Source: an uncultured Gammaproteobacteria bacterium
GTDB lineage: Bacteria; Pseudomonadota; Gammaproteobacteria; Arenicellales; Poriferihabitantaceae
Assembly (NCBI GenBank): GCA_947259885.1
Contig: CAMYNW010000022.1
Coordinates: 1,871 to 65,870 of the forward strand
Length of the DNA stretch: 64,000 nucleotides
Direction of reading: 5' to 3'
Shown: piece by piece, positions 3,049-64,000 of the stretch
How the letters are laid out: every line of letters begins with the position of its first letter
Numbering within the stretch: the stretch's first letter is position 1
Made by a program: the position numbers and the translations under genes
Notes under the pieces: generated by a model
What the model saw: the letters and a program-made list of their open reading frames with translations, nothing else
Databases searched by the model: none
Told to the model about the DNA's origin: nothing

Positions 3049-3067
3049 AATACAAATAGCCTATCTC

Positions 3068-5029: not shown

Positions 5030-5062
5030 CGACTTCCACAGCGGAGTCTGGCACTTTGTACG

Positions 5063-5857: not shown

Positions 5858-5935
5858 ACTATCTGTGAACTTGCAGGCGGCCGTAATGAAAATTTATTGT
5901 TTGATTTTCAGAATCTGTTGTAAAAATGCTTACCG

Positions 5936-10047: not shown

Positions 10048-10063
10048 GTAATTACAGGGTAGC

Positions 10064-13895: not shown

Positions 13896-15767
13896 ATGAC
13901 GAATAAGTCGAAAACCGTAGTGTTTGACAGTAACCCCGGCCGCAACGCCCAAACTTATGGTGTGGCGCGTGAGCTCGGCACTGATATGGATTTGATCCAC
14001 GAACCATCTGTGGGTGTCATGGGTACTAAGGGCGATAGTCAATGTTATTTGGGTGTGCAGCGAAAGGTCGAAGCCATTCACGAAAATCTGCGCCAACGTC
14101 TTGGGCGCGGTGACGGTCAGATGCCAATGCGTTTGGTACAACCTGAATATACGGTTGCGACCTCGGATGGTATGCGTAACGGTACACGGGAAATGCGCTA
14201 TTCACTCATTGGTCGTGAGGTCACCCATGATACGGTTTGCGAACACCTGAGCGCGAGTGGCCTGGAAGGAACAATCGCGGTGGTTGCCTGTGACAAACCA
14301 CCGGTTGGCACTTTGGCCGGCATCCTTGAGCATGATCGACCTGCGATCATCATGTCTGATGGCCCGATCCGGCCCGGTAAAGATTCAGTAACAGCAGAGT
14401 CCATCGATATCATTAGTGGCTTCCAGGTGGCGGGTAGTCATGATACCGAGCTTAAAGACCGTATCGCTCGCGAAGCATGCCCGGGATATGGAAGTTGCGG
14501 CGGCATCTTTACCTATAACACGATGCAGACTTTTATTGCGGTTGTCGGAATGCAGCCGCTGCACATGGTTGCGCCGCCGTCAGACGACCCGCGCCGGATT
14601 AACGAATTCCCGGAACAGCTTGTTACCTACTTGAAAGGCATGATTGAACGGGGTCAAACGCCGCGCGACATCGTCACCCGTGATGCCATCCGCAACGGCG
14701 TAATTGTTGCCATGGCGATCGGCGGATCAACAAATGTCCTGTTACATGCGCCCGAAATTGCGAGAGCGGCGGGATTTCGCAGTTTTTCTGAAAACATTAT
14801 GTCGCCAGAAGAATTTAATCACTTGTCACAGTATGTGGTCCCTGTTTTAACCGACGCTCGCCCATACGGTAAATACTCCATGGTCGACATCGATGAAAAA
14901 GGCGGTGTGCAAGTAATCATCAAAGAGTTAATGGATGCAGGGCTGTTAAATGGCGATACGGAAACCTGCACCGGCGAAACACTGGCCGAGCAAATCGCGC
15001 GGCTCAATACTGCGGGACCAGATGGCACCGTGGTGTATACCGTGGAGAAACCATTCAAACCAACTGGAGGCCTGCGGGTACTAGGCGGCAATCTTTCGCC
15101 TGAATTCAGCGCAGTACTTAAACTGGCCGGCGTTGAAGGCGGGCTGGAAAACAATCGCTTTGTTGGCAAAGCTCGCATCTTTAACGGGGAACAGGGGCTG
15201 CTCGATGCACTGGAACTAACACCGGAAAGTTTCAGCAATCACGATATGGTAATTGTGCGCTATGAAGGGCCTTGTGGTGCACCAGGGATGCCGGAAATGC
15301 TTGACTCAACTTCCCGTATCACAACGCTTTGCCGTGAGAAAAACATTGTGGTAGGCATGATGACCGATGCCCGTTTTTCCGGTGGCTCTGTCGGCCTAGT
15401 AATCGGCCACGTTGGGCCAGAAGCCGCGTTGGGTGGACCAATTGCCCTTGTCGAAGATGGTGATGAGATTATCGTGGATCTCGACGCCAATCAGATCAAC
15501 TGCTCGTCATTGGATGACACGGCAATACTCAATACGCGTAAAGCGGCATGGGAAAAAATGGTTGCTGATAATGGTGGAATGCATCCCGCCTGTGGCGAAG
15601 TCGATACCCGTTTATTAAACCGGATGCGAATGTCTGCAGTTTCCGCAGTCTACGGAGCCGGAATGCATCCGGATCGAGTCCTATGGGTGCCACAACCGCG
15701 TGAAGCAGGAAAAAGTGGTTTCGTACCACACAACAAATATCGTGAGGGATCTCAGAAAGTGTTCTAA
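13896..15767 (+). CDS. IlvD/Edd-family dehydratase (dihydroxy-acid / sugar-acid dehydratase type)
   Basis: Family motifs: 'VACDKPPVGTLAG', 'CPGYGSCGGIFTYNTMQTFIAVVGMQ' (Fe-S cluster Cys region), 'MAIGGSTNVLLHAPEIA', 'DARFSGGSVGLVIGHVGPEAALGGPIALVEDGDEI'. I chose the ATG at 13896 because it follows 'cagggaa'. In-frame ATGs also occur at 13827 and 13881. Confidence 0.85.
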   Translation: MTNKSKTVVFDSNPGRNAQTYGVARELGTDMDLIHEPSVGVMGTKGDSQCYLGVQRKVEAIHENLRQRLGRGDGQMPMRLVQPEYTVATSDGMRNGTREMRYSLIGREVTHDTVCEHLSASGLEGTIAVVACDKPPVGTLAGILEHDRPAIIMSDGPIRPGKDSVTAESIDIISGFQVAGSHDTELKDRIAREACPGYGSCGGIFTYNTMQTFIAVVGMQPLHMVAPPSDDPRRINEFPEQLVTYLKGMIERGQTPRDIVTRDAIRNGVIVAMAIGGSTNVLLHAPEIARAAGFRSFSENIMSPEEFNHLSQYVVPVLTDARPYGKYSMVDIDEKGGVQVIIKELMDAGLLNGDTETCTGETLAEQIARLNTAGPDGTVVYTVEKPFKPTGGLRVLGGNLSPEFSAVLKLAGVEGGLENNRFVGKARIFNGEQGLLDALELTPESFSNHDMVIVRYEGPCGAPGMPEMLDSTSRITTLCREKNIVVGMMTDARFSGGSVGLVIGHVGPEAALGGPIALVEDGDEIIVDLDANQINCSSLDDTAILNTRKAAWEKMVADNGGMHPACGEVDTRLLNRMRMSAVSAVYGAGMHPDRVLWVPQPREAGKSGFVPHNKYREGSQKVF

Positions 15768-48848: not shown

Positions 48849-49157
48849 CAGGCTGGCCTGTGCGCAGTCGCCCTGATTAATATTGCATTACTGGGAGGAC
48901 TCTACCGAAGTAAGTTTGACCTGTATCAAATAACCTTATGCGCCAATAAGTTAAAAACATAGGAATTCGGGCCATGGTCGATTCCGCTGTACTGATGCGG
49001 AGTCTGGTTTTGCTCTCCATCACTCTCTATGAGGAATGCTCAATGGGCCGTATAAAGGTAGCCGGGTTTATTTTCCCCGGCACTTTCTTGGAAAGAAAAC
49101 TGGTCGCTCACCAGTGTGGAGAGGCATTGCGACCTTAACTACTAATTGGAAAAAACA

Positions 49158-50129
49158 ATGAACTTAAGTAAATTACTACGAATAATTACCAATGCCGCAG
49201 TATTTTCGGCTCTATTTACACTCCCTGCACTATCAAACGCAGCAGAAAGGATCGTATTTGGTGGCGGTCCAGCCGGCGGCACTTTTCAGGTTGTAGCAAA
49301 CGCCATTCAGGTCTATGGACCTGTTAAAGAATCTACTGATTACACGGTAAAAGCCCAGTCATCTGCAGGCTCGATTGAGAATCTTCGCAAAGTCAATCAA
49401 GGTAAATCTGATTTTGGTGTTGTGTATTCTGGACATGTGTATCTTGGACGAGAGGGATCGCTCAAGAACGATACCAACAAGTATGAGGATGTGATGGCAG
49501 TATCCTTCTTGTATGGCGCCCCGGCCCAACTCGTGGTCCGCAAAGATTCAGGGATTACCAGCGTTAAAGATCTTGAAGGAAAAAAGGTGGGCGTTGGTAA
49601 CGCTGGTTCCGGCGCATTCGCTAACTGTGAATTGTTCTTTACCCACATGGGGGTCTGGGACAAGATCGAGCGTAATGCAATGGGCTATAACGATGCCGCA
49701 AATGCATTTGGTAATAACCAGCTCGACGCTTTCTGGCTGTTTACCGCTTTTCCCAGCGGCGCTGTGATCATGGCTGCCCAAACCAACGATATTGATCTGA
49801 TTGATCTTGGTAAGGATGCGGAGGAAAGTGGTTTCTATGAGAAGTACCCTTACTTTTCCAAGCTATCAGTTCCCGCTGGCACCTATAAAGGTGTTGAGAA
49901 AGAATCACCTTCGTTTCGGGATTCAGCGCTATGGGTAGCGAATGCGGAGGTGTCGGACGAAATCGTTTACGATCTGCTTTCAAAAATATATACCGACGAA
50001 GGACTTGCGTATATGAAGGAACAGAAAAAGACGTTCAACGAGATGGCTATTGAAACTGGAATTGATGGGATAGTCACACCGCTTCATCCGGGCGCGGAGA
50101 AATTCTGGAAAGAAAAAGGTCTGATGTAG
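49158..50129 (+). CDS. TAXI-family TRAP transporter solute-binding protein
   Basis: The ATG at 49158 gives the signal peptide 'MNLSKLLRIITNAAVFSALFTLPALSNAAE'. 'GGGPAGGTFQVVANAI', 'SSAGSIENLRKVNQGKSDFGVVYS' and 'LHPGAEKFWKEKG' are TAXI hallmarks. Confidence 0.85.
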   Translation: MNLSKLLRIITNAAVFSALFTLPALSNAAERIVFGGGPAGGTFQVVANAIQVYGPVKESTDYTVKAQSSAGSIENLRKVNQGKSDFGVVYSGHVYLGREGSLKNDTNKYEDVMAVSFLYGAPAQLVVRKDSGITSVKDLEGKKVGVGNAGSGAFANCELFFTHMGVWDKIERNAMGYNDAANAFGNNQLDAFWLFTAFPSGAVIMAAQTNDIDLIDLGKDAEESGFYEKYPYFSKLSVPAGTYKGVEKESPSFRDSALWVANAEVSDEIVYDLLSKIYTDEGLAYMKEQKKTFNEMAIETGIDGIVTPLHPGAEKFWKEKGLM

Positions 50130-50138
50130 AGTACTGAA

Positions 50139-50176
50139 GAGGGAAAGGCGGACAAATAGAACTCCGTCTTTCCCTC
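50139..50176 (+). promoter_or_regulatory. Intercistronic stem-loop between the TAXI binding-protein gene and the permease gene
   Basis: GAGGGAAAGGCGGA-(10-nt loop)-TCCGTCTTTCCCTC pairs at 13 of 14 positions. It starts 10 nt after the stop at 50129. No U-tract follows, so it looks more like an mRNA-stabilising or partial-termination element than a canonical terminator. Confidence 0.5.
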
Positions 50177-50222
50177 CAATCTCTATGCAACAATAATATT
50201 TGGGGCCGATGAGAAGAAATTT

Positions 50223-51956
50223 ATGTTTGATAAACTAACTCGAGCGGAACAGGTTATCTTCGATGTATTAGCCGTTTTCCTCGTGCTTTTCTATTCCTAT
50301 TCGGCGGTCCTGGAGCCGGCAGCGACCCAGTATCACCGTGGCATATATGTCATCATCACATATATCCTTGTATTCCTGCTTTATAAATCCGACTCTACTC
50401 TAGGCAGAATAACTGATTATGTTCTTATATTAATTTCTGTGATCACGATCGGCTATTGGATCTATAACTTCGAAGTTATTAACTATCGTGCAGGCGCAGA
50501 AACCACACTGGATAAAACCATTGCAGTTGCCGGGGTCCTGATTGGTATTGAACTTGCGAGAAGGGTGGTTGGAAATATCTTTGTGGTCATTGGTGGGATC
50601 ATGTTGCTCTATGGGGTGTTCGGAGAATATGCACCAGAACTGATTTCTCATGCAGGGGACACTTTCCCTGATCTGTGTACCAGCATTTTTTATAAAAGTG
50701 ACGGCGTTTTTGGCATCATGGCCAATGTGTTGGCGACCTACGTCGTGTTGTTTGTGATTTTTGGTGCCTTTCTCGAAAAGTGCGGTGCACATCGATTCTT
50801 TATGAGCTGGCCAATGGCAGCAGTCGGGCACAAGATCGGCGGGCCGGGAAAGGTGGCTGTCATTGCGAGCGGGCTGTTTGGTTCGATATCGGGCAGCGCC
50901 ATTGCAAATACAGTATCAACAGGCGCGTTCACCATTCCGCTGATGAAGAAGGCTGGCTTCAAGCCGCATGTGGCAGGAGCCATTGAGCCTGCAGCTTCAA
51001 TTGGTGGTATGTTCTTGCCACCGATCATGGGGGCCGGCGGATTTATCATGGCCGAGCTGACGGGTATCCCTTATTCGCAGATCATGTTGATCGCAATTTT
51101 TCCGGCGCTGATGTATTTCTTCAGCGTTTTCGTCATGGTGCATTACGAAGCCAAGAAACATAATATCGTCGGTGAGAAAAGTGAAGAGAGTGCCAAAGCG
51201 ATTTTTGCGCGCGAATGGTTTTATCTTTTACCGCTCGTGGCTATTACTATACTAATGTTGGCAGGATACTCTCCCGGGTATGCTGCAATCCTTGGTGTTG
51301 TTTCTTGTATCGTGGTCAGCTGGTTCAGAAAGGACACGAGGATTGACATTAAAGGTTTCATCCACGCATCACGGGCGGGCGCCGAGAGCAGTTTAAAGAT
51401 AGGTGCGACCGTTGGCGTGATCGGTATCATTATTGGTGTATTAACCTACAGCGGTCTGGTGCTGACATTTGCCGATATTGTCATTGAACTGGCGAACGGA
51501 AAGCTGTTCCTGACTATTTTGCTGATTGCGCTGGCTTCCCTGGTGCTTGGAATGGGTGTGCCTGTCACCGCGGCTTACCTGATTACCGCTGTGGTAGCAG
51601 TTCCAGCACTTACGCATCTTGGCGTCAATCCAATTGCAGCGCACATGATTGTGTACTGGCTGTCTCAGGATTCAAACATCACCCCGCCGGTCTGCATCGC
51701 TGCCTTTGCCGGCGCCACCATTGCCAAGGCGGACATGTGGAAAACAGCGTTTAACGCATTTAAATTTGCGAAGTTTCTATATTTGGCGCCATTTCTGTTT
51801 GGATATGTGCCCGGATTTTCTTTAGACGGCAGTGCCACCGATATTGTTATCGCATTCGCGCTGATTGCGCTCGGGACCTTTGCCTATTCCTGGTTTCTCA
51901 GTGGTATCTGGATAAAGCCACTAAAGAGTCGGTTTGCAGGAGCACCGAAAGCTTGA
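50223..51956 (+). CDS. TRAP transporter fused permease (TAXI-associated DctQM-type)
   Basis: Highly hydrophobic 577-aa protein with many TM helices. It carries 'GPGKVAVIASGLFGSISGSAIANTVSTGAFTIPLMKKAGF' and 'GGMFLPPIMGAGGFIMAE', blocks typical of TRAP large-subunit permeases. Confidence 0.85.
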   Translation: MFDKLTRAEQVIFDVLAVFLVLFYSYSAVLEPAATQYHRGIYVIITYILVFLLYKSDSTLGRITDYVLILISVITIGYWIYNFEVINYRAGAETTLDKTIAVAGVLIGIELARRVVGNIFVVIGGIMLLYGVFGEYAPELISHAGDTFPDLCTSIFYKSDGVFGIMANVLATYVVLFVIFGAFLEKCGAHRFFMSWPMAAVGHKIGGPGKVAVIASGLFGSISGSAIANTVSTGAFTIPLMKKAGFKPHVAGAIEPAASIGGMFLPPIMGAGGFIMAELTGIPYSQIMLIAIFPALMYFFSVFVMVHYEAKKHNIVGEKSEESAKAIFAREWFYLLPLVAITILMLAGYSPGYAAILGVVSCIVVSWFRKDTRIDIKGFIHASRAGAESSLKIGATVGVIGIIIGVLTYSGLVLTFADIVIELANGKLFLTILLIALASLVLGMGVPVTAAYLITAVVAVPALTHLGVNPIAAHMIVYWLSQDSNITPPVCIAAFAGATIAKADMWKTAFNAFKFAKFLYLAPFLFGYVPGFSLDGSATDIVIAFALIALGTFAYSWFLSGIWIKPLKSRFAGAPKA

Positions 51957-52013: not shown

Positions 52014-52870
52014 TTATCTTCTAGAATACTTGTTATTGGCTTGCAGAATATTTCCCATAATCTCGGCTATTTCATATACCTGTGGTGCTTCCAGAATGCT
52101 TCGGTGGTGCCCGGACACTAGAAACGACTCTAGTCTCCCCCCACATGCTGCGTTCCATAAAGACAATTCGTATTGAGTCTTTTCTGCGTTTTGGAATTGT
52201 TCACTATAGAGAAAAGTGACTTCACCTGGGTATTCACTGGTCCTATACCGTCTCGTCAGAAAAGCCTGATAGAGAAACATCCGCTTGGTACGGTCGCCGG
52301 TGGATTGTTCAGAGGCTTTAGACTGAGATTGATGCGTCAATTTATAAACAAATGGCATAGTGGAGATGTATTTTTTTGTGAGCTCCAGGAATCTTCCTGT
52401 TTTTAGGTGTCTGATCACTTTAATGGGGAGTGGGGCGGTTCGCGAATAGCGAACTTTGGATCGTAAGTTTTCCGAAGTCGAGGGTTGCAGTTTACTTAAG
52501 TGAGGCCCTCCAGCATCAAGAACGAATAGTTCGTTGACCTTGTCCCCGGATTGCATGAGTTGCTGGGCGATCTCAAAAGCGATTAATCCACCGAAACACA
52601 TTCCACATAGAGTGTATGGTCCAGTAGCGTGAACAGACTTGATTTCTTTAATATAGCTCGCGGCCATTTCTTCGATTGACGAAAAACGCTTTCGTTCATC
52701 TCCGAGCTCGGGGCTTTGCAAACCATAGAATGGCTGATTGTCTCCAAGACTCAGGGATAAATCACGGTAAAAAAGAACGTTGCCTTCGGCATGTATGCCA
52801 AAAATAGGGGATTTATCACCCTGCGGTTGAATTGGGACCAGGACTTGTAAATGTGATTCGGCTCCCTTTA
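52014..52870 (-). other. Thioesterase domain with GxCxG (Cys replacing the nucleophilic Ser)
   Basis: The usual 'G(W/Y)S.GG' motif reads 'GMCFGG'. The Cys codon TGT lies at 52596-52598 on the - strand (aa 1727). A candidate catalytic His sits in 'VSGHHRSILE'. Confidence 0.8.
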
Positions 52871-55800
52871 GCAGGGCTTTTGCCAGGCTTTCAACGGTAT
52901 TGTTTTCTATCAGCATCGCAAGCGGCATTTTAAGGTCTAATAGTTTCTCTATTGCATTGGCTACCCGCACCGCTAACAGCGAATTCCCACCCAGGTCAAA
53001 AAAACTTTGTTCAACATTTTCGACTCGTTGTCTTAGGATATCTTGCCAGATCGCGACAATAGATCTTTCGAGCCCGGTATTGCCCGCATATCTCTGATTA
53101 CGATTTGGTGCTTCCTTATATTGAACGTGATCTACATCAAAAAATGATCTGCTCACCCTTGCAAGTTTCATCATTTCAGCAGGATTTTCTGAGTCAATCC
53201 ATGAAATCAATAAATCTTTTACAGTTGCCATCAATTGTTGACCTAAAGCATGGTTGAATACCGCGCTATTGAAATGCAGGCTCACGGTAAGCGCGTTACT
53301 CTCTGGAACCCCGACCAAGGTTAGAGGAAAGTTACTTGAAATGCCGGACTGGGAAAACTGAGTGTACTGACCACGTCGCTGAAGCGAAGTAATCAAAATA
53401 CTGTGCTTATGATCGATGTGTTTACCCGGCTGCCAGGGGAAATTCTCCATCATCAAGAGTGACTGGATTCCTACGGGTCCTTTTTTAGTTTTGACTATGG
53501 TGTTCAATGGGTGCACACACCAGTTCTGCAATACATTGGGTGAGACGTGTTCGCAGTCACGCAGTGAATTAGATTGTTTTTCGATTTGAGAGACGAACTC
53601 TGAAAACTCTGCCTCATCCGGTTGATTACAGATAACAGGGAGATGGTTAACAAACTGACCTGTCATCTTGTCAATGCCAGGGACTGGTGCGGTGCGACCG
53701 GAAACCGTGGTAAAAAAGGCGACAAGGTCGGCGTCACTGGCTGAACTCAGGCAAGCCGCCCAGGCCGCCTGCAACAATTGAGCAAAGGTGATCTGATTTT
53801 CCGCCAGGTGATCTTCCAGCCGCAAGAATGTATCTCCGGATATCTGGAATTCAGCTGAAACTTGCTTGCGACTTCTTTCCTGGCCTAGTGATAGCGCCGA
53901 CAGATCAGTCCTTGATTGGGCATAGGGCCCAAGAAAATTCGTCCAGTGCTTTTTTACTCCCAGTAAATCTGTCTGGGAAAGCCAGCGCTGGTACTGATAA
54001 AACTGAGGGGGATCCGACAGCCGGGTCACAGTTTCCATCAGCCTTGATTGATAAATTTCTATAACCTCCTGCAGAATAATCGAGGCCGACCAACCGTCAA
54101 CTAATCCATGATGAAAACTCCAGCATAAAATTGATTCATTCTGTTCAAGCTGGAATACAAAAATTCGCCAGGATGGATACTGATCAAGGTTGAGACCCTG
54201 TTGTCTATCGGCTGTCAGTCGCTTATCGATGGATTCCATTGGATTGTTCGGGTCTACATTCTCATATGAAATCTTCACCTCGCTCCTTGCATACACAACC
54301 TGTTCGGGTTCAGCTTTGTCACGCCAATGAATCAAGGTTCTCAGCGCGTCATGTCTGGTCACCACCTCGCTGCAGCACCGCTGCAGCAGATCGAGATCAA
54401 GATCGCCTTCAATTCGAGCCTGAATTTGCATGTGTCCAGGATCAGCAGCGCCACGACTCAAGTGAGAGAACAGGAATGCCGCCTGAGTGTCGCTTAGAGG
54501 AAAAGCGGCCGTCGCTTTTTCTCCATACTCTTCGGTAATTCGTTTCTTCTCTTCTGGTGTAACTAACCATGCTGCGTTCGAGGCCTTTGTCACTGTCGGT
54601 GCCATGCGGAGGCTCAGCTGCGCGATAGTTGGCGCTTCGAACAGATCGTTTGGACCAACCTTGAAACCTGCTTGCAGGATTTTAGAAACAATCTGGATAC
54701 TAAGTATTGAATCTCCGCCTAGACTAAAAAAGTTATCATCAATGCTGATTTGCTCCACGCCAAGAACTGTCTGCCAGATTTCCTGAAGGCAGCGCTGGAC
54801 CTCACTACTGGGTTGTCGAACACCATTTCGGGGTGAGGAGTTGCCATCATGCTGTTCAGCGATCTTTGCTAGAGCTTGCCTATCCAGCTTTTCGTTCGAC
54901 AAGGTCGGAAGTTCGGGCAGTTCGATAATCTGTGCTGGCACCATGTGTGACGGTAATTGAGTCGCAAGAGTGTCACGCAGTGTGTCTATTGTCCCTTCAT
55001 CAGACTCCATCACGACAAATGCGGTGAGTGTCGGCGCTCCTGCGCGAGAATACACCGAAACTATACTAGCAGCCCGGACATCGGGTAGAGACAAAATTCG
55101 CGCTTCGATTTCACCGGGATCAATACGGTGTCCGCGGATCTTGATCTGTTGATCGATTCGACCGAGGTAAATCAGGTTTCCATCTTCCAAGTACCGGACC
55201 AGGTCACCTGTATGGTAAACGGTGGTATTACCCTGATCGATGCAGAGGTGTCGGCGAAAGGCATTCTGAGTGGCCTCACTCTCTTGCCAGTAACCTGCTG
55301 AGACCCCGTCTCCTGCAATAACCAGTTCACCCGAAGCACCCAAAGGCGCAAGTTGCTCGTTCGGGTTCATGACAAACAGTCTAGTATTGGCTATGGGTCT
55401 GCCTATAGGCACCGGAACTGAACTGTCGTGGTGTGTCGCATCGTAGGCCGCGCACCATACGGTTGCCTCAGTGGGCCCGTATTCGTTGAAAATCTGGGCG
55501 TTCGGTAACAACGATCGATGCTGCTTCAGGTGCTCACCCGAGGGCATGGCTTCACCCGCATTGATGACAACCTGTATGCTACGGAGCGCCGATTTTTGCT
55601 CGCTCGAAGATGCATGGTCAAGTACGGACTGATACAGGCTGGGCAGGCATAACGTATGACTGATTTGCTCGGTAGAAATGGTGTGCAAAAGACTCTCGAT
55701 ATCCTGTTCCTGACGCGGTAGCGAAATCACCAGCTTTCCGCCATTAATCAAGGTCCAGAATATTCCAGCCACAGAGCTGTCAAAGGACAGTGATGAAAGC

Positions 55801-57776
55801 AATAAAAAAGAGGAGGGCGATGAGTTGTAGAATTGTTCTCGGGCTAATGTGGAGTGAACCAGATTGCGATGGGAGATCATCACCCCCTTGGGTACGCCGG
55901 TACTCCCGGAAGTAAACAATATATAAGCATTATCGCTAGTGAGTCTGTTCGGCGCAGGAGCTAGGTTCGGCCCCGCTTCAATACCGCATAACTCGTCAAT
56001 AACAAGTGCGGCGCAGCCCTTAGCTTGTACCCGGGCAGATGTATCCCGATTGGTCACCACCACCGAAGCCCCGCTGTGAGTCAGCATTTCCTGAAGACGG
56101 GATGAGGGGTATTGTGGATCCAGCATCAAGTAGGTGGCGCCAGATCTCAGTACTGCGAGCATCCATACCAGGCATTCGTTACTGCGAGGCAGGCAGATGC
56201 CGACAACACTCCCTGGCATAATATTTCTGGAAAGCAGGTATGTCATTTTGATATGTGACAGACGATCCAGCTCACCATAACTCAGTCTTTCTTCACCGCA
56301 CACCAATGCGGTGGCATCAGGGTGGCTTCTTGCCTGATCCAGTATCAGTTGATCAATAAAGCGATCAGCGTTTAATTCTGCTTCAGTGGTGTTCCATTTA
56401 TAAAGCAGAGTGTCCGACTCTTCCACCGGAAGAAAGGCCAGTTTTTTCAGTGCCACGTTTGCATCCAAGGACAAGCTGATAAGAAAAAATCTTAACTGGT
56501 CCAGCATGCGTGCGATCTGTTGCGCAGTGAACACACCCCTATCGTAGATCAGGATCAGTCTAAGGTCATTTTCTGGCAGAGCAATCAACGCTAGCGGAAG
56601 ATCACTTTGTTCCTTGTATTCGATTTCGGAAAGCGCCAATGAACCCTCGCTGTCAGGCTCGCCGTTGTCGATAGAATCCGAGGGGTAGTTTTCGTAGACC
56701 ACTACCGAACCGAGTAGAGATTGACCTGCGGGGCATTCGCTCCAATGCATGATGTCCGTCAGAGCAGTATTCTCATGCTCCATCACCGTAAGCTGATTAC
56801 TTTGGGTTGCCTGAAGGTAATCAGCCGCTGGCTGATCCCAGTTGATGTGCGATCTCAAAGGAATTGTGTTGATAAACAAGCCGACAGATTCTTCTATTCC
56901 CTTCAGCGAGGCAGGTCTTCCTGATACGGTTACGCCCCAGACAACGTCGTCACTGCCAGAGTAGCGACTGAGTAACACCGACCAGGCGGCTTGAAGTGCG
57001 GTATTTATGGTGACACGCAATGGTTTACATAGGGCTTCTAATGCATCAAAAGTTTTGGCAGGTACCAGGCGTGACGCTTCCTCATAGTCCCCCAACCGAT
57101 GCGAGGCTTCACGCACTCTTTCTATGCTGAGAGTGGTGCGATGATTTACCCCTTGGAGGTACTGCTTCCAGAAGACCTGTTGGGTCTCGCGGTTTTGTTG
57201 TTTGAGCCAGGCGATATAGTTACGGTAGGGAGGCGCAGGTTTAAAAACAATGGATTCGCCTTTAATCAATCCGGCATAAAGTCGCTTGAGTTCCTTGATT
57301 ACGTGATTGGTAGACCAACCGTCGGCAATCAGATGATGTCTGGTCCAAATCCAGGTGTAGCTGCCTTTGCCGGTCCGGACCAAGGTCATGCGCATCAACG
57401 GCGCCTTATTTAATAAGAATTCGGCTTTCCGATCGGATTGTTTTAACTGTTCAAGTTTTGAATCCTGGCTGGTCGGGTCTTCTCCCTCCCAGTCATGCTC
57501 TACCCATTCTAGCGAGACACTTTTTCGGACAACCTGCAGTGGCTCTCTCAAGTCCTTCCATATAAACGCGGTGCGAAATGCACTGTGTCGCTGTATAAGC
57601 AGATCCCAGCACTTCTTAAACGTTTCTGGTGAGAAGCCCTGCTGGTTGACGTTTACTGAGAGCTGCTCAAGATAGACACCTGATTCAGGAGAGGAAATTG
57701 TATGAAACAACATGCCCTGCTGCAGTGGCGACAGTGGATAGGCATCCTCAATATTTTCATGCAAAGGCGCAGACAT
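52014..57776 (-). CDS. Non-ribosomal peptide synthetase, domain order C-A-T-C-T-TE (terminal module lacks an A domain)
   Basis: C1 has 'LSPLQQGMLFH' and 'RHHLIADGWS'. The A domain has 'LSYGELD', 'LFTSGSTGVPKGV', 'NEYGPTE', 'YHTGDLVRY', 'GRIDQQIKIRGHRIDPGEIE' and 'LSNEKLDRQAL'. T1 has 'FFSLGGDSILSIQ', with the Ser codon at 54708-54710. C2 has 'FHHGLVDGWS'. T2 has 'FFDLGGNSLLAVRV', with the Ser codon at 52980-52982. The TE has 'PIFGIHAEGNVLFYRDL', 'LCGMCFGG' and 'SGHHRSIL'. Confidence 0.92.
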   Translation of the reverse strand: MSAPLHENIEDAYPLSPLQQGMLFHTISSPESGVYLEQLSVNVNQQGFSPETFKKCWDLLIQRHSAFRTAFIWKDLREPLQVVRKSVSLEWVEHDWEGEDPTSQDSKLEQLKQSDRKAEFLLNKAPLMRMTLVRTGKGSYTWIWTRHHLIADGWSTNHVIKELKRLYAGLIKGESIVFKPAPPYRNYIAWLKQQNRETQQVFWKQYLQGVNHRTTLSIERVREASHRLGDYEEASRLVPAKTFDALEALCKPLRVTINTALQAAWSVLLSRYSGSDDVVWGVTVSGRPASLKGIEESVGLFINTIPLRSHINWDQPAADYLQATQSNQLTVMEHENTALTDIMHWSECPAGQSLLGSVVVYENYPSDSIDNGEPDSEGSLALSEIEYKEQSDLPLALIALPENDLRLILIYDRGVFTAQQIARMLDQLRFFLISLSLDANVALKKLAFLPVEESDTLLYKWNTTEAELNADRFIDQLILDQARSHPDATALVCGEERLSYGELDRLSHIKMTYLLSRNIMPGSVVGICLPRSNECLVWMLAVLRSGATYLMLDPQYPSSRLQEMLTHSGASVVVTNRDTSARVQAKGCAALVIDELCGIEAGPNLAPAPNRLTSDNAYILFTSGSTGVPKGVMISHRNLVHSTLAREQFYNSSPSSFLLLSSLSFDSSVAGIFWTLINGGKLVISLPRQEQDIESLLHTISTEQISHTLCLPSLYQSVLDHASSSEQKSALRSIQVVINAGEAMPSGEHLKQHRSLLPNAQIFNEYGPTEATVWCAAYDATHHDSSVPVPIGRPIANTRLFVMNPNEQLAPLGASGELVIAGDGVSAGYWQESEATQNAFRRHLCIDQGNTTVYHTGDLVRYLEDGNLIYLGRIDQQIKIRGHRIDPGEIEARILSLPDVRAASIVSVYSRAGAPTLTAFVVMESDEGTIDTLRDTLATQLPSHMVPAQIIELPELPTLSNEKLDRQALAKIAEQHDGNSSPRNGVRQPSSEVQRCLQEIWQTVLGVEQISIDDNFFSLGGDSILSIQIVSKILQAGFKVGPNDLFEAPTIAQLSLRMAPTVTKASNAAWLVTPEEKKRITEEYGEKATAAFPLSDTQAAFLFSHLSRGAADPGHMQIQARIEGDLDLDLLQRCCSEVVTRHDALRTLIHWRDKAEPEQVVYARSEVKISYENVDPNNPMESIDKRLTADRQQGLNLDQYPSWRIFVFQLEQNESILCWSFHHGLVDGWSASIILQEVIEIYQSRLMETVTRLSDPPQFYQYQRWLSQTDLLGVKKHWTNFLGPYAQSRTDLSALSLGQERSRKQVSAEFQISGDTFLRLEDHLAENQITFAQLLQAAWAACLSSASDADLVAFFTTVSGRTAPVPGIDKMTGQFVNHLPVICNQPDEAEFSEFVSQIEKQSNSLRDCEHVSPNVLQNWCVHPLNTIVKTKKGPVGIQSLLMMENFPWQPGKHIDHKHSILITSLQRRGQYTQFSQSGISSNFPLTLVGVPESNALTVSLHFNSAVFNHALGQQLMATVKDLLISWIDSENPAEMMKLARVSRSFFDVDHVQYKEAPNRNQRYAGNTGLERSIVAIWQDILRQRVENVEQSFFDLGGNSLLAVRVANAIEKLLDLKMPLAMLIENNTVESLAKALLKGAESHLQVLVPIQPQGDKSPIFGIHAEGNVLFYRDLSLSLGDNQPFYGLQSPELGDERKRFSSIEEMAASYIKEIKSVHATGPYTLCGMCFGGLIAFEIAQQLMQSGDKVNELFVLDAGGPHLSKLQPSTSENLRSKVRYSRTAPLPIKVIRHLKTGRFLELTKKYISTMPFVYKLTHQSQSKASEQSTGDRTKRMFLYQAFLTRRYRTSEYPGEVTFLYSEQFQNAEKTQYELSLWNAACGGRLESFLVSGHHRSILEAPQVYEIAEIMGNILQANNKYSRR

Positions 57777-57805: not shown

Positions 57806-60800
57806 TTAGGGGTCCAGTAACGACGACAGGTTCTTGAGAGTATCCTCGTCATGATTCAGAAGTGAGAACGGTGTTTGATCCGCCGATTGCTGTTGCTCGT
57901 CAGTCGAGTCTTTTGAACCCACAGCGAGCGCCAGTTGTTGAATGGTCTGGTGCAAAAAGAGCTGATTAGGCCTAAGTGATATCCCTTTCTGGCCGGCACG
58001 AACAACAATCTGAATCGCTACGATTGAATCTCCACCAAGATCAAAAAAGTTATCATGAATACCCACTTGATTGATGCGCAGCGCATCACACCAGATCCTG
58101 GTTAACATTTTCTCATTTTCGGTAGTTGCTGGAATCATAACCTGATCCAGCTTGGGTCTTTCGTTGCGCGGGTCCGGCAGCGCGTTGTGATCTACTTTTC
58201 CATTGACGGTGAGCGGAAAACTGTCGACAAAAACAAAATACGATGGAACCATCGCTTCCGGTAAGCGCGATCTCAAATAAGATTTCAGCACTTCAGTACT
58301 GACTAATGCGTTTCCTGTGTAGTACGCTACCATTTTATTATGCCCTCTACCCTGCAATAAATCTCCATCGTCGTAGCTGATTTCTTGGAGAATCTCGTGT
58401 ACTCGATTGGCATCGATCTGGTCGTTGAGTTCTTCGAGCGCAGCGGTTCTTTGTTTGTGACCTAATCGAACGTCCCAGCTGTAGGGTAACGCATAATTGT
58501 GATAACCCATTTTTTGCTTATGTACGAATATGCCAGTGTCATTAATCAGGCAATTTGTCGATCGGCCGGTATCTTCAGGCCTTGTCCAAGGGGCATGCTG
58601 CTCAAGAAACGCGTACATTGCGCCCATCGAAACATCACAATAGCGATAGAAGTCGACAAACTGAATCTCATTAAAAATATCGTCTGATGCGAAAAGACTC
58701 ATATCCAGACACTCGGTGACTTTGTCCGGAATACGGTGATACACTTTTCGAGCTTCTATAACCTCCCGGTCAATCGACTCAGGGTCGAATTCTGATTGTT
58801 CAAAGACCTGTCTGGTCAGACGGGTTTCAAACATCTGCCCTCGAGATAATCCGGTGACAATAACGGGTATGTCAAGCTTATGCGCATGGTTGATCGCTAG
58901 AGTGTAAATTGTTTTGAAGCAGCCATAGCAGACGCTGGAATGGCGATTAAGACTGTCACTGAAGATCTCGTTCATGAAATCTGTAGTAACAAATTCATGA
59001 TCTATTCCGAGATCAGCAACACTTCTTCTGATGTTTGCCTTAGCACCCTCAGATATGTATCCATTGTCTAAAGTCATCGCGAACACATTCAGATCCATCG
59101 CACATATCTGATACAGAGCATAGGTGCTGTCCTTGCCCCCACTTAACAGCATCATGCAGTCGTATCGACCTCGCTTGGGTTTCGATAATTCCACTAAATG
59201 CGACTGTAACTCAGGCAGTGATCGGAAATATCCCGCCGCAAGATTACGATAACTGTTAAAGTCCTGGCAATGATTACATAATCCGGCGTCATCAAAGCTG
59301 ACACCAGGATAATTCGATGCCAGCCCGCATGATGCGCAATAATGCGGTGTCTGGAAAGTGTCACGATCCGTGTCTTGCAAAATACCGATATGGCAATCAC
59401 TGATCAGAGGGTGGGATTTTACTGCCCGAGAAATTTCAGCGATTTCGATGCGCACCCCGCGAATCTTTAACTGGCTGTCTTTTCTGCCCAGATAAACGAG
59501 TTGTCGGTTTCGGTTGACTCGCGCCAGATCCCCGGTTCTATACATCTTACGGTCAGGTAAAAAAGGGTCTGGAATGAAGCGATCGGAAGTCATACCGGGC
59601 TGGCGCAGATATCCAGATGCCAACCGCCGCCCTCCAATATGGATTTCTCCGGTCACGCCTTCCGGAACAGGATTGCTGGCGGAATCAAGCAGATAGATGT
59701 TCACCCCCTCAGCTGGATGGCCAATGGGCACCGATACGTCGTTATCCTCGCCAGGTACATACTGATGAAGCATGCATCCGACCACCGCCTCGGTAGGGCC
59801 GTATTCGTTGAATACCCTGATACCAGACCCGAAAATACGTTGTGCTTGCTGTGCCAGCGACGTAGTGAAATCCTCACCCCCGAGAATTAGAGTATGTACT
59901 CGAGAGGTCGTCAGGTTCATGCCGGTCAACAAGGAAAGGTGGGCGGGGGTCAGTTTAATCACGTCGACGGTATCGTCTTGCACGACCTTTATAATACTGA
60001 GATCCATCGCGCTGCGATCATCCGGATATATACGGATACAGCCGCCTATTGAGAGCGGTACAAAAATAGAAGTAAGTGTGAGGTCAAATCCTATTGAAGA
60101 ATACAGGGGAAAGTCACAACCCTGTCTCGAAGCAGGCGGCTCTGCGACTTGCCCCTTAACATTACAATAAGTCCGGGCTGCCCAATGAACATAATCCCCT
60201 AAAGCGCCTTGCTGTATGACAACGCCTTTAGGCTCTCCGGTGGAGCCAGAGGTAAAGATCACATAGGCATCGTCTTCCGGACTGATTTCGGGTAGCACAT
60301 CCAGTTGTTGAGAAGCAAAGCCATGTTCAGTGTGGTCGATATTTATGACCGTGCTGCAAATATCTGCCAGGCGGTGATTCTGATCAGAATGGCACAGCAA
60401 TAGCTTGATACCAGCATTGGTGCAGATCTGCTGCAGCCGAGTGTCTGGATTCGCAGGATCGAGCGGTATAAAAGCCGCTCCGGCTTTATGCACAGAAATA
60501 AGAGCCACAAGCAATTCAATTGAGCGCGCTGCACAAACGCCTATAAGCTTCGGTGCATCTACCTGGTTTAGAATCCTGTATGCCAACATATTGCTCAGGT
60601 GATCGAGCTCCGAATAGGATATGGAGCGATCCTGATCAATCACCGCAGGCGCGTCAGGTCTGTGTTTAACCTGGTGTCTGAATCGATTGACTACGCTCTC
60701 GGAATACAAGGCATGCTCGGATTCAACAGTTGATTGGCTATAACTCCAGAACCGGTGCAGCAATTTCTGGCCTTCAGTGTCACCTGTCAATTTAACAGTG

Positions 60801-62122
60801 GAAATATGCTGACCAGGGTCTGATAGCAAGCTCTTAAGGACGTTTACAAAATGAAAAAGTGCGTCATTGCCGCGCATTTCGTCCAGGGTTTCTCGCTTGA
60901 CATCAAAACACAAGCGCAGATCGCCGTCGCCGCAAAGATCAAATAATTGAAGGCGAAGATCGTGTTGTGGATCGATGTGATTGTTATGCAGCCAGTCGGT
61001 TCGACACGGATAAGGGCCAAAATCCGCAAATTGAGCTGTGATGTAATTGAAAATTACGTTGTAGCCTCGGACGGCATCCACTTCACTGTTTGCCGCCGAG
61101 GCTGATTTCAAATGCTGAAAAGTTGCAGCCGAGACTTTATCGTGCAAAGTAACAAAGGTGTCCTCTGGATCGACACTTACGTGCAATGGAAAGACTTCGA
61201 TAAACAGTCCGATAGTGTTCTTTAAATTGATGTTGCCCCGGTTATGCACAGGGCAGCCGATTGCTAATTCTTCATCATCACTGATTCGATGCAAGTAGGC
61301 AAAAAATGCAGTGGCCACCAGATTAAATACAGATAAATCAAGACTAAGCGTCGAGAATTCTGGGCGCCGCGCAAGCGCGTACAGTTGTCGCGTTAAGACT
61401 TCACCCAGTTGGGTTTGAACACGGTAGGCGCGAGTGTCTCTTGATCCGCTCTTATTGTGATAAAGCTCGATCGGAGTGGAGGGGTTAGTCGAGGAATCCT
61501 CAATTGGTGCCGGATTATCCGGGTGTTTGAATTTTTCAGCCGTTCTATAAGATTCGAATTGTGGCAGGACCGCAGCGTCTGAAGTGCTCGCAGATGATTC
61601 TGATGAAATATGCACCAGGTAGCGATTCGATACCTGTCGAAAAATCAGCTCAATGGAAGCGATATCAGTGAAACAATGATGCTGATTAAAAAACCAGACA
61701 TAATGCGAGGTGCCCAGCTTGATCAGCGCGCAGTCAAAATTCACCTTGGATAAGTCTATGATTCGGCCGGTTCTTCGCTCAATTTCATCATCGCAGCGCT
61801 GATCTGCATCACTGAATCCAGATAGATCTATAAATTCAAAGTAATCATAAATGGAACTTACAATCCTTTGCTGTGGAACCTGGTCAGTAACTTCGAGAAC
61901 ACTTCTCATTGTGTCGCTATCTTTGATCACCCCGCTAATTGCCTCGCGAAATGCTTTGACATCAAGCGCTCCATCGATGTCGAACCTCATCGCCATGTTG
62001 TAGAGTGGTGAATCGGGATTCAGTCTCTGACCCAGCCAGACCAGAAGCTGGCTGTTAGTCAGATTACTGCGGGTTGCCAGATCATCAAATCTGGGAAGGT
62101 TTGTAATCGGCTGTTGGGACAA
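57806..62122 (-). CDS. Non-ribosomal peptide synthetase, C-A(interrupted by a PP-loop domain)-T
   Basis: The TTG start at 62122 is 15 nt after the carrier-protein stop. The C domain has 'NQHHCFTDIAS'. The A domain has 'ISYSELD', 'VIFTSGSTGEPKGV', 'NEYGPTE', 'YRTGDLARV' and 'GRKDSQLKIRGVRIEIAEI'. A ~347-aa insert follows, then 'LPEAMVPSYFVFVDSFPLTVNGKVD'. The T domain has 'FFDLGGDSIVAIQ', with the Ser codon at 58025-58027. Confidence 0.92.
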   Translation of the reverse strand: MSQQPITNLPRFDDLATRSNLTNSQLLVWLGQRLNPDSPLYNMAMRFDIDGALDVKAFREAISGVIKDSDTMRSVLEVTDQVPQQRIVSSIYDYFEFIDLSGFSDADQRCDDEIERRTGRIIDLSKVNFDCALIKLGTSHYVWFFNQHHCFTDIASIELIFRQVSNRYLVHISSESSASTSDAAVLPQFESYRTAEKFKHPDNPAPIEDSSTNPSTPIELYHNKSGSRDTRAYRVQTQLGEVLTRQLYALARRPEFSTLSLDLSVFNLVATAFFAYLHRISDDEELAIGCPVHNRGNINLKNTIGLFIEVFPLHVSVDPEDTFVTLHDKVSAATFQHLKSASAANSEVDAVRGYNVIFNYITAQFADFGPYPCRTDWLHNNHIDPQHDLRLQLFDLCGDGDLRLCFDVKRETLDEMRGNDALFHFVNVLKSLLSDPGQHISTVKLTGDTEGQKLLHRFWSYSQSTVESEHALYSESVVNRFRHQVKHRPDAPAVIDQDRSISYSELDHLSNMLAYRILNQVDAPKLIGVCAARSIELLVALISVHKAGAAFIPLDPANPDTRLQQICTNAGIKLLLCHSDQNHRLADICSTVINIDHTEHGFASQQLDVLPEISPEDDAYVIFTSGSTGEPKGVVIQQGALGDYVHWAARTYCNVKGQVAEPPASRQGCDFPLYSSIGFDLTLTSIFVPLSIGGCIRIYPDDRSAMDLSIIKVVQDDTVDVIKLTPAHLSLLTGMNLTTSRVHTLILGGEDFTTSLAQQAQRIFGSGIRVFNEYGPTEAVVGCMLHQYVPGEDNDVSVPIGHPAEGVNIYLLDSASNPVPEGVTGEIHIGGRRLASGYLRQPGMTSDRFIPDPFLPDRKMYRTGDLARVNRNRQLVYLGRKDSQLKIRGVRIEIAEISRAVKSHPLISDCHIGILQDTDRDTFQTPHYCASCGLASNYPGVSFDDAGLCNHCQDFNSYRNLAAGYFRSLPELQSHLVELSKPKRGRYDCMMLLSGGKDSTYALYQICAMDLNVFAMTLDNGYISEGAKANIRRSVADLGIDHEFVTTDFMNEIFSDSLNRHSSVCYGCFKTIYTLAINHAHKLDIPVIVTGLSRGQMFETRLTRQVFEQSEFDPESIDREVIEARKVYHRIPDKVTECLDMSLFASDDIFNEIQFVDFYRYCDVSMGAMYAFLEQHAPWTRPEDTGRSTNCLINDTGIFVHKQKMGYHNYALPYSWDVRLGHKQRTAALEELNDQIDANRVHEILQEISYDDGDLLQGRGHNKMVAYYTGNALVSTEVLKSYLRSRLPEAMVPSYFVFVDSFPLTVNGKVDHNALPDPRNERPKLDQVMIPATTENEKMLTRIWCDALRINQVGIHDNFFDLGGDSIVAIQIVVRAGQKGISLRPNQLFLHQTIQQLALAVGSKDSTDEQQQSADQTPFSLLNHDEDTLKNLSSLLDP
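58337..59377 (-). other. PP-loop ATP-pyrophosphatase-type domain (N-acetyl-sugar-amidotransferase / PseA-WbpG-like) inserted between A8 and A9 of the adenylation domain
   Basis: Spans aa ~916-1262. It opens with a Cys knuckle 'YCASCGLASNYPGVSFDDAGLCNHCQDF', followed by 'RYDCMMLLSGGKDSTYALYQI' (SGGKDS at nt 59126-59143). Later come 'SSVCYGCFKTIYTLAINHAHKLDIPVIVTGLSRGQMFE'. Normal A-domain sequence flanks it on both sides. Confidence 0.75.
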
Positions 62123-62137: not shown

Positions 62138-62377
62138 TTAGATCGTTGCGATCTCAGAATCGAGGTAGCTGACAATAGTATTGACGTTACCAAAGTTTTC
62201 GAGGGTCACGTCCTTTGGAGGAATGGTGGTTTCAAGGTTCTTCTCAATAAAACCCACCAAACGCATCACGCCAATAGAATCTATCAATCCGCTGATTAAT
62301 AGATCTTCCTCGGCAGTTATCGATTGTTGGTCGTTTAAAAGCTCAGACTGAATGAACGTTACCAGTTTCTGTTTCAT
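62138..62377 (-). CDS. Free-standing acyl/peptidyl carrier protein
   Basis: The 79-aa protein carries the phosphopantetheine-attachment motif 'LISGLIDSIGVMRLVGFIE'. Confidence 0.85.
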   Translation of the reverse strand: MKQKLVTFIQSELLNDQQSITAEEDLLISGLIDSIGVMRLVGFIEKNLETTIPPKDVTLENFGNVNTIVSYLDSEIATI

Positions 62378-62429
62378 ATTGTGCTGTGTGAGATTAAGAA
62401 CAAAATATCTTTTAACGGGCGCCGCGAAT

Positions 62430-64000
62430 TTAACCCTGGACTTTATCTATCTGCAGGTTCTGGACTCGAAGCTCGGTCAATTTTCGACGATCGATCTTCC
62501 CGGATGTCGTCCTTGGGAACTGGTCCAAGAAAACGATCTGATCAGGCACCGCATACTTGGGTAGTCTCTCTCCAACGTAATGGCGAAAGCTTTCCTCCTT
62601 ATCGTCTGATTTGGCATCGAGCAACAGGGCCAGTTCAAGTCGCTCATGCTCTGTGCCCGAATCCAGAATGTACGCCGCTGCTTCTTCCACCTCGTTGTGT
62701 GTCAGTATGGCTGCCTCGACTTCGTCCAGCTCGACACGGTTACCACGCACCTTGACCAGACGATCCATCCTACCATGGTAGTGCATCAAGTTAACATGAT
62801 CCCTGCTTGCCAGATCCCCGGTTCGAAAGAAAATTTTGGTGTCCGATGGGCGCTGGTAAAAACATCTGCTGTTGAGATCTGATCGATTCCAGTACCCTTT
62901 CATCATCGTGGGCGTATGAATCAGCAGTTCCCCCACTTCATCGATCTCAACCGGCGTGTTGTTTGTATCAACGATCAGCGCCTCGGTTTCGGCCCATACG
63001 TCTCCAATGGGAATAGACTCTTCGGTTCCTTTCAGTGAGTCCGGCACGAGATAAAGTGTGCACTGGTTTACCTCTGCCGGTCCATACAGGTTGGCAAACT
63101 GTGCCTGGGGCCAATAGTCCATCAGTTCCCGGATCTGACGGGGAGAAAATGGGTCACCGCCATATAGAATCCAGCGGAGAGACGATAGATCACGTTCATC
63201 AAGTACTCCGCGGGTCAGCACCTGTATCAGGGCAAATGGCACTGAATACCAGATCGTGAATTTTTCATCCTGGGCCAGCTTGGTCATGCTGGCGGGCATT
63301 CTGGTGTGCGGCTCAGGGATAATTATTGTCGTCGCGCCTGCGAGGGGTACTGCGAGATATCCTAGTGTAGAAATATCAAAATGCAGCGGAGCGTGATTGC
63401 CTACTCGGTCTGAGGGAGAGATCGAATAGGTATCCACCGTGATCCTGGCATACGCATGCCCACTGTCATGGGTATGCATAATGCCCTTCGGTGACCCGGT
63501 CGATCCAGAGGTAAACATGATATACGCGAGGTCATCAGATTTGATTCCAGTGGCGCAGTGAGGAGAATCGTCACTGTTAAAAATTTCCGACCAGGAAATA
63601 AACTGGATTCTTTCCGGATCAGTAAAGTCTGATTTATCCACTGGACTGCATCCAAGCACATACTTTAGAGAGGGAAAACTTTCCGCGGAACGCATCATGA
63701 AGGCCAATTTGCTGGGCGCAGACACGATGCAACTGATATCACAACTCTCTAAAATTGTGCCTATGCGCGACACGGGGGAGAGGGGGTCAATCGGCACGTA
63801 AGCGGCGCCCGCCTTGAGTATTCCGTATACCGCAACGGCAGTTTCGAGGCTTCGATCGAGGTAAATGCCTACTCGATCCCCTTTTTCCACATTGCACTGC
63901 TGCAACTGTCTTGCCAGCTGGTTGGTTCGACGATCCAGTTCCGAGTACTTTAATTCGGTCTCAGCAAATCGAAATGCAACGTTTTCCGGATAACGATCAG
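62430..64000 (-). CDS. Free-standing adenylation enzyme (ANL superfamily, amino-acid-type A domain); 5' end outside the window
   Basis: The frame stays open upstream of the listed TTG at 63905, through to the window edge. There it reads '...DRYPENVAFRFAETELKYSELDRRTNQLARQLQQCNVEKGDRVGIY...', which includes the A1 core. Further motifs are 'MFTSGSTGSPKGIMHTH', 'NLYGPAE', 'FRTGDLAS', 'GRMDRLVKVRGNRVELDEVE' and 'PRTTSGKIDRRKL'. Confidence 0.9.
   Translation of the reverse strand, partial: DRYPENVAFRFAETELKYSELDRRTNQLARQLQQCNVEKGDRVGIYLDRSLETAVAVYGILKAGAAYVPIDPLSPVSRIGTILESCDISCIVSAPSKLAFMMRSAESFPSLKYVLGCSPVDKSDFTDPERIQFISWSEIFNSDDSPHCATGIKSDDLAYIMFTSGSTGSPKGIMHTHDSGHAYARITVDTYSISPSDRVGNHAPLHFDISTLGYLAVPLAGATTIIIPEPHTRMPASMTKLAQDEKFTIWYSVPFALIQVLTRGVLDERDLSSLRWILYGGDPFSPRQIRELMDYWPQAQFANLYGPAEVNQCTLYLVPDSLKGTEESIPIGDVWAETEALIVDTNNTPVEIDEVGELLIHTPTMMKGYWNRSDLNSRCFYQRPSDTKIFFRTGDLASRDHVNLMHYHGRMDRLVKVRGNRVELDEVEAAILTHNEVEEAAAYILDSGTEHERLELALLLDAKSDDKEESFRHYVGERLPKYAVPDQIVFLDQFPRTTSGKIDRRKLTELRVQNLQIDKVQG

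Follow-up and report, generated by a model that had tools for sequence, protein, structure and literature searches.

A conserved cysteine nucleophile and a predicted canonical aspartate position in the terminal thioesterase of a nonribosomal peptide synthetase line from an uncultured gammaproteobacterium

The 64,000-nucleotide stretch of contig CAMYNW010000022.1 from an uncultured Gammaproteobacteria bacterium, analysed here as a whole and referred to below as the window, carries a nonribosomal peptide synthetase (NRPS) line that ends in a thioesterase (TE) domain with Cys1727 of the protein NRPS2 at its nucleophile position. This TE falls in the class of AB3403 and of the TE of the bulbiferamide NRPS (BulbE-TE), in which Cys is combined with a catalytic Asp after strand β6, and not in the class of the ObiF and SulM TEs; it is an uncharacterised addition to a known class of Cys-TEs with the canonical Asp position. 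We favour, with some reservation, the reading that the domain is a functional type-I Cys-TE, which would form an acyl-thioester and release its product by aminolysis or cyclisation.

NRPS2 ends in an intact TE domain with a Cys nucleophile

NRPS2 is encoded by a minus-strand open reading frame (ORF) at 52014..57776, and its frame is unbroken over 1920 amino acids (aa) of translation. Its Pfam domains follow one another in the order Condensation, AMP-binding, PP-binding, Condensation, PP-binding and Thioesterase, corresponding to the condensation, adenylation, carrier and thioesterase domains of a C-A-T-C-T-TE protein. The Thioesterase match (PF00975) stands directly after the PP-binding domain and covers aa 1662-1907 with E = 4e-22 and 79.9 bits, above the gathering score of 26.4. 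The translation holds YTLCGMCFGGLIAFE, with GMCFGG as the TE nucleophile motif, and both PIFGIHAEGNVLFYRDL and 'VSGHHRSIL' are found in it. The Ser nucleophile of the type-I GxSxG motif is absent; the window TE reads GMCFG with Cys. On the plus strand, positions 52596-52598 are 'aca', and the corresponding minus-strand codon is TGT, which encodes Cys1727 and stands between ATG (Met) and TTC (Phe). Translation and codon reading bear out the preliminary description, which had reported a Cys in GMCFGG at this TGT codon; its view that the TE is otherwise intact agrees with the presence of PIFGIHAEGNVLFYRDL and 'VSGHHRSIL' and with the PF00975 score.

Conservation of Cys1727

TGT is one substitution from the Ser codons TCT and AGT, and it might be suspected on that account that a Ser codon was misread in sequencing or assembly, or that the TE domain is in decay. 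The sequence was checked for error on assembled metagenome contigs (Logan). One of these, assembled from an independent sediment metagenome (run X1) and covering 52188-52821 at a word depth of approximately 7, shows no differences from the window. A diverged Logan contig from run X4, covering 52465-52615, shows nine differences, none of them at 52596-52598. Cys is kept in every close relative (P0001-P0006, P0121-P0125, P0128, P0129 and P0132), and it is encoded as TGT in the window and the syntenic contig L093 and as TGC in L094, L095 and L012. In addition, seven full-length orthologues of 38-56% identity show no variation at C1727, D1754 and H1891, in the two HHxxxDG motifs or at the two serines of the peptidyl carrier protein (PCP) domains. 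The identical independent contig and the five orthologous loci with Cys as TGT or TGC speak against an error, and the invariant triad, carrier and condensation motifs together with the intact 1920-aa frame speak against both error and decay. The artefact reading is effectively refuted, and Cys1727 is genuine, not an assembly or sequencing error.

Because the codon has turned over synonymously between TGT and TGC while Cys stayed fixed, the residue is taken to be under purifying selection and to be a selected trait of the lineage. The preliminary description had considered that the orthologues might uniformly carry Ser; they keep Cys instead. Among the matches listed for GTDB representative genomes, where the whole-protein scan used generic NRPS motifs, no orthologue exceeds approximately 44% identity for the TE or approximately 38% for the whole protein.

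Predicted catalytic triad and relation to known Cys-TEs

An AlphaFold2 model of the TE was built from 65 sequences (pLDDT 88.7, pTM 0.88), and the triad was read from the order of its secondary-structure elements. In the model, Cys86 (Cys1727) occupies the nucleophile elbow, with strand 80-85 before it and helix 87-101 after it, Asp113 (Asp1754, in 'FVLD') comes after strand 106-112, and His250 (His1891) comes after strand 241-246. The predicted triad is Cys1727/Asp1754/His1891 in the ordinary NRPS-TE layout, with the nucleophile after β5, the Asp after β6 and the His after β8. Among the window TE and its relatives, Asp is found at Cys+27 in 133 of the 151 sequences, in Cys and Ser forms alike, and His is found at the triad position in 141. 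The column after β7 is variable; it holds Glu in 28 of the 151 sequences, including Glu1859 in the window.

Closeness to known Cys-TEs, and to ObiF and SulM in particular, was judged by sequence, profile and fold searches of the PDB as proxies. In the single-sequence search with the window TE, the best matches were 7dxo/7crn, a Ser TE, and AB3403 came third (9e-17, motif GGWCFGG), while the ObiF and SulM TEs gave no match at E <= 1. With the subfamily profile, AB3403 was far ahead of all other matches (1.4e-81, covering the T-TE region in full); for ObiF1 the alignment was limited to the PCP/carrier domain and the beginning of the TE, and SulM was not among the best 60. The Foldseek search with the window TE model was led by canonical type-I TEs, namely 7crn, NocB, Pks13, AB3403 (rank 7) and Vlm2; the top 50 were TE domains, with neither ObiF nor SulM among them.

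AB3403 (ABBFA_003403 / A1S_0115 orthologue of Acinetobacter baumannii; PDB 4ZXH/4ZXI) has been described as a Cys-TE with Asp at position I, the site after β6. It agrees with the window TE in being the C-terminal type-I TE of an NRPS, in its Cys nucleophile (GWCFGG in AB3403) and in the Asp after β6. On the other hand, the AB3403 TE is only approximately 28% identical to that of the window and takes rank 128 of 151 by distance among the TE relatives.

The second Cys-TE of this class, BulbE-TE from Microbulbifer, uses Cys961/Asp988/His1097 to form a 15-membered N-acyl-indole macrolactam (PMC11536411). Its Cys-to-Ser variant loses cyclisation and performs hydrolysis only, and the thioester is needed for the weak nitrogen nucleophile (PMC11536411). 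Compared through its published description, BulbE-TE shares with the window TE the Cys/Asp/His triad and an Asp at Cys+27 on the loop after β6. Both come from marine gammaproteobacteria. Unlike the window protein, BulbE stands at the end of a ureidopeptide line and employs the indole nitrogen of a Trp, and neither Trp nor ureido logic is evident in the window cluster. Judged by this comparison, BulbE-TE appears to be the best functional analogy for the window TE.

The ObiF and SulM TEs, which act in obafluorin (β-lactone) and sulfazecin (β-lactam) formation, have in common with the window TE a Cys nucleophile in a GxCxG-type elbow, where theirs forms an acyl-thioester intermediate. If the window TE worked in the same way, the β-hydroxyl or β-amino group of the last residue would close a β-lactone or β-lactam from the Cys1727 thioester, and Glu1859 after β7 would be in keeping with such a mechanism. 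However, the catalytic Asp of ObiF and SulM is located after β7, in a RifR-like manner, and ObiF has Gly at the β6 site, whereas Asp1754 after β6 is invariant in the orthologues of the window TE and the position after β7 is variable among the 151 sequences. Similarly, the SulM TE carries a Gln-Cys-Asn motif and a basic pocket, whereas the window TE reads Met-Cys-Phe. The failure to recover ObiF and SulM as relatives by sequence or by fold, with only a partial profile match to ObiF1, points in the same direction. Whether the catalytic Asp stands after β6 or after β7 tells the AB3403/BulbE class apart from that of ObiF and SulM. The statement in the preliminary description that the studied Cys variants belong to strained-ring pathways holds for ObiF and SulM but is incomplete, as AB3403 (GWCFGG) and the macrolactam-forming BulbE-TE also have Cys.

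Ser and Cys in the TE subfamily

The frequency of Cys was determined in an index-free HMMER search of 1.84 billion representative proteins, which gave 32,325 matches at E <= 1e-3; the window TE and the best 150 of these were used. In the nucleophile column, 73 sequences have Cys, 71 have Ser and 7 have another residue. Cys makes up 72% of the sequences at ranks 1-25, and its share at ranks 76-150 is 36-44%. A first, word-indexed census of the window and the 120 nearest clusters had given 71 Cys, 49 Ser and 1 Thr; since a word index could favour 'CFGG' words, the census was redone without an index, and a bias of a few bits toward Cys is possible near the list cut-off. In a neighbour-joining tree of 152 tips, the window lies inside an all-Cys clade of at least 23 representatives, and parsimony requires at least 22 Ser/Cys changes across the 152 tips. 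Judged from these sequences, Cys is fixed in the lineage of the window yet commonplace in the subfamily, where it is about as frequent as Ser and has been exchanged for it many times. The general rule quoted in the preliminary description, that nearly all type-I TEs of NRPSs use GxSxG, does not fit this subfamily. For genome mining, a GxCxG TE alone is a poor flag for β-lactone or β-lactam chemistry, given that about half of this large TE subfamily has Cys.

The same counts are the basis of the main rival to lactam-forming release, which we consider possible but less probable. According to it, the window TE is an ordinary hydrolytic or generic releasing enzyme, Cys is a near-neutral stand-in for Ser, and the product is a linear acid. 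The approximately 1:1 ratio of Ser to Cys in the nearest relatives, the repeated switches on the tree and the identical Asp and His positions in the Cys and Ser forms would all be expected in this case, and thioesters and oxoesters are hydrolysed at similar rates (PMC11536411). It is harder to reconcile with the fixation of Cys across the clade of at least 23 representatives, down to approximately 40% identity and with synonymous codon turnover. Furthermore, in the cited literature, each Cys-TE tested so far loses its native reaction upon Cys-to-Ser exchange.

In seven of the 150 nearest TE representatives (P0138, P0143, P0145, P0150, P0160, P0161 and one other), the nucleophile column is occupied by Gly, Asp, Gln or Ala, and several of the seven also lack the Asp or the His. 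These relatives may be inactive or repurposed.

Gene cluster and predicted starter unit

In the diverged metagenomic contigs L093, L094 and L095, NRPS2 belongs to a conserved cassette of seven genes, which encode a phosphopantetheinyl transferase (PPTase), a HupE/UreJ-like membrane protein, a predicted prolyl-PCP dehydrogenase of the acyl-CoA dehydrogenase (ACAD) family, a Pro-type adenylation (A) enzyme, a PCP, NRPS1 and NRPS2; the genes that flank the cassette differ between the three contigs. This uncharacterised cluster has been conserved across several uncultured marine Gammaproteobacteria.

The pocket segment of the stand-alone A enzyme has as its best PDB matches the L-Pro-PCP ligases PltF (1e-24) and PigI (1e-16), and its specificity code is DILYLGLQCK, compared with DLLYLALVCK in PltF. 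The A-domain codes of NRPS1 and NRPS2 were read by hand, and a check on AB3403, a known glycine binder, gave a Gly-like code. The 79-aa PCP has the Bmp1 PCP as its closest PDB match, and the dehydrogenase of L093 matches the AnaB prolyl-ACP (acyl carrier protein) dehydrogenase with 1.5e-116, Bmp3 with 1e-86 and PigA with 2e-83. From the PltF/PigI-like pocket, the Bmp1-like PCP and the AnaB-like dehydrogenase together, a proline-derived starter can be predicted, and the A/PCP/dehydrogenase trio would provide pyrrole-2-carbonyl or dehydroprolyl from proline. The known trios of this kind are PltF/PltL/PltE, PigI/PigG/PigA, Bmp4/Bmp1/Bmp3 and AnaC/AnaD/AnaB. In the window the A enzyme and the PCP precede the NRPS genes (62138-64000), and in the orthologous contigs the ACAD-family enzyme joins them (the three genes together at L093 2623-5672). 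In contrast to the known trios that convert Pro to pyrrole, no halogenase or polyketide synthase comes next here, and the starter would feed a three-module NRPS. Oxidation by AnaB ends at dehydroproline, whereas for the window line dehydroproline and pyrrole both come into consideration.

The terminal module (52857-54500) is a C-T-TE unit without an A domain, and all seven orthologues retain its HHxxxDG motif and its carrier serine unchanged. As the cassette has only three A domains, one of them must also load T3, the terminal carrier domain. The stand-alone A enzyme (62430-64000) was considered as an in-trans loader of this module and was dropped in view of the adjacent 79-aa PCP, the syntenic ACAD gene of L093 and the PltF/PigI-like pocket. 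The residue on T3 could in principle be of the Ser, Thr or Dap (diaminopropionate) type, which would leave room for ring closure of the ObiF/SulM kind. The pathways of these two enzymes provide a β-hydroxy acid (ObiF) or sulfamated Dap (SulM). The conserved cassette in L093, L094 and L095 has no transaldolase or β-hydroxy-amino-acid gene, no Dap-synthesis gene and no sulfotransferase gene. The Pro-like, Asx-like and DSACIAEVWK codes, moreover, are unlike what we take to be Ser, Thr or Dap codes, which we count against a strained ring. Considered together with the Asp position and the nucleophile motif, this makes a β-lactone or β-lactam product very unlikely.

In NRPS1, an insert of approximately 326 aa, with an N-terminal CxxC...CxxC zinc ribbon and a PP-loop, separates the core of the A domain from its C-terminal subdomain. 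The insert matches the TIGR03573 WbuX 'N-acetyl sugar amidotransferase' profile with E = 6e-35 over profile positions 3-328 of 344, below the trusted cut-off, and its match to Pfam QueC is weak. More than 400 cluster representatives at 50-67% identity occur in many phyla, nearly all of them followed by AMP-binding_C and PP-binding domains. Literature searches gave no description of a PP-loop or WbuX-type interrupted A domain. The 'terminal amidation domain' of a preprint was considered as a match for the insert and is unrelated, that domain being NAD-binding and AAR-like. Because the code of the host A domain is Asx-like, the insert suggests side-chain amidation, or a related change, of the carrier-bound residue. 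Among the features of this line, the Cys nucleophile is less unusual than the A domain with its PP-loop insert and the terminal module that lacks an A domain.

The layout of the cassette resembles that of the AB3403 cluster, which likewise has an adenylating enzyme, an ACAD-like enzyme, a small carrier protein and a PPTase, but AB3403 itself is a single C-A-T-TE module that activates Gly, whereas the window line is a three-module NRPS. Orthology with the Acinetobacter A1S_0112-0119 (Ac-505) operon, which is similar in its ligase, ACAD, ACP, Cys-TE NRPS and PPTase genes, was ruled out by tblastn: against the A. nosocomialis locus L176, identity is 24% for the A enzyme, 22% for the ACAD protein (E = 2e-8) and 28% for the TE, and the PCP has no match. 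By these sequence comparisons, the two clusters resemble each other in layout and are not orthologous.

A HupE/UreJ-family membrane protein gene is present in all three orthologous contigs (L093 1430-2581, L094 1563-2684 and L095 1-1155). This family is usually tied to nickel or cobalt uptake. The gene hints that the product may be exported or metal-binding.

Proposed release of the product

The cassette would build a tripeptide capped with pyrrole-2-carbonyl or dehydroprolyl. The chain bound to T3 would then pass to Cys1727 by transthioesterification, giving an acyl-S-enzyme, as follows from the residue and the fold. The preliminary description had proposed a thioester-enzyme intermediate, and such an intermediate does follow from an intact TE with Cys at the nucleophile position. 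By analogy with BulbE-TE, the acyl-S-enzyme would most likely be resolved by an intramolecular nitrogen, possibly a weak one, so that lactam-forming aminolysis would be the most likely release step. The unusual cyclisation that the preliminary description envisaged is possible, while its β-lactone/β-lactam analogy with ObiF and SulM is without support, in view of the Asp after β6, the Met-Cys-Phe motif, the failure to recover either as a relative by sequence or fold and the lack of a fitting gene in the cassette.

Several points weigh against release by aminolysis or cyclisation as proposed here. The triad geometry is the order of secondary-structure elements in a predicted model, and the release chemistry is argued from one characterised enzyme, BulbE-TE, compared by description. 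The function of the family and its product are predictions from sequence. The free interchange of Ser and Cys in the subfamily may mean that Cys is near-neutral and release plain hydrolysis. The last module has no A domain from which the residue on T3, and hence the nucleophile, could be read. Finally, the dehydrogenase, PPTase and HupE genes are seen in the orthologous contigs only, and the window stops inside the gene of the stand-alone A enzyme.

If release does proceed by aminolysis, a more specific and unlikely form of it may be put forward, in which ring closure by the Cys-TE uses a nitrogen that is a poor nucleophile. This nitrogen would be either the N-H of the cap pyrrole or one of amide or amidine type that the PP-loop domain installs on the Asx residue. 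The products would then be pyrrole-capped cyclic tripeptides, possibly metal-binding. Were this true, the BulbE-type logic of Cys for weak nitrogen nucleophiles would be extended to a second chemotype, the widespread and undescribed class of interrupted A domains would gain a function, and a new family of pyrrole-capped cyclic tripeptides would be added from uncultured Gammaproteobacteria near Granulosicoccaceae and sponge-associated lineages. The combination of a proline starter, a PP-loop-interrupted A domain, an A-less terminal module and a Cys-TE makes it probable that the product of the cluster is new, and the window TE could provide a second case for testing the reason that Cys is chosen in NRPS lines.

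Features of the NRPS line

Table 1. Positions in the window of the TE, its predicted triad and the other parts of the NRPS line
Feature	Position	Strand	Basis
TE domain, alpha/beta-hydrolase fold, aa 1642-1920 of NRPS2	52017..52853	-	Pfam PF00975, AlphaFold2 model, Foldseek
Nucleophile Cys1727, codon TGT (GMCFGG)	52596..52598	-	Translation; independent contig; invariant in 7 full-length orthologues
Predicted triad acid Asp1754, codon GAT (Cys+27, 'FVLD'), after β6 ('position I')	52515..52517	-	AlphaFold2 model, conservation
Predicted triad base His1891, codon CAC (second His of 'VSGHH'), after β8	52104..52106	-	AlphaFold2 model, conservation
Terminal carrier domain T3 (FFDLGGNSLLAV, Ser1599), hands chain to TE	52857..53069	-	Second Pfam PP-binding stretch; Ser1599 invariant
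Second condensation domain of NRPS2 (HHGLVDG), forming the A-less module with T3	53157..54500	-	Pfam Condensation, 2 stretches; H1222, H1223, D1227 and G1228 invariant
C-A-T module of NRPS2, A code DSACIAEVWK (hand-read)	54612..57749	-	Pfam; code positions invariant in orthologues
NRPS1, 1438 aa, C-A-T, A code Asx-like DLTKIGEVGK	57806..62122	-	Pfam; 62% identical to L093 orthologue
PP-loop (SGGKDS) and zinc-ribbon domain inserted in the A domain of NRPS1	58370..59347	-	NCBIfam TIGR03573 (WbuX-like)
Stand-alone carrier protein, 79 aa ('GLIDSIG')	62138..62377	-	ORF; PDB matches Bmp1 PCP (6cxt_A), D-alanyl carrier proteins, PigG, PltL
Stand-alone proline-type A enzyme, 5' end beyond the window	62430..64000	-	Pocket segment like PltF/PigI; 72% identical to L093 orthologue

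Neighbouring genes and host

Two plus-strand genes at 49146-51956 separate the NRPS from the carbonic anhydrase and LuxR genes; one encodes an NMT1-like solute-binding protein, and the other is a fused TRAP-transporter DctM gene. The syntenic contig L093 is without the NMT1-like and DctM genes, and there the NRPS directly adjoins the carbonic anhydrase.

With respect to the host, an Edd/IlvD-family protein encoded at 13827-15767 (plus strand) is 96% identical to its counterpart in a metagenome-assembled genome (MAG) of Ca. Spongiihabitans and 92% identical to that in a Ca. Poriferihabitaceae MAG, followed by Granulosicoccaceae. Ca. Spongiihabitans and Ca. Poriferihabitaceae are sponge-associated lineages, and the public runs that contain the TE sequence are sediment and salt-marsh metagenomes.

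At the other end of the window, a plus-strand gene run at 121-11968 encodes a 975-aa DUF11/DUF7507 repeat protein, an outer-membrane efflux protein, two HlyD-type proteins, one with a GAF domain and the other with a peptidase M50 domain, and a 634-aa short SecA-like ATPase. This gene run looks like a dedicated secretion system.

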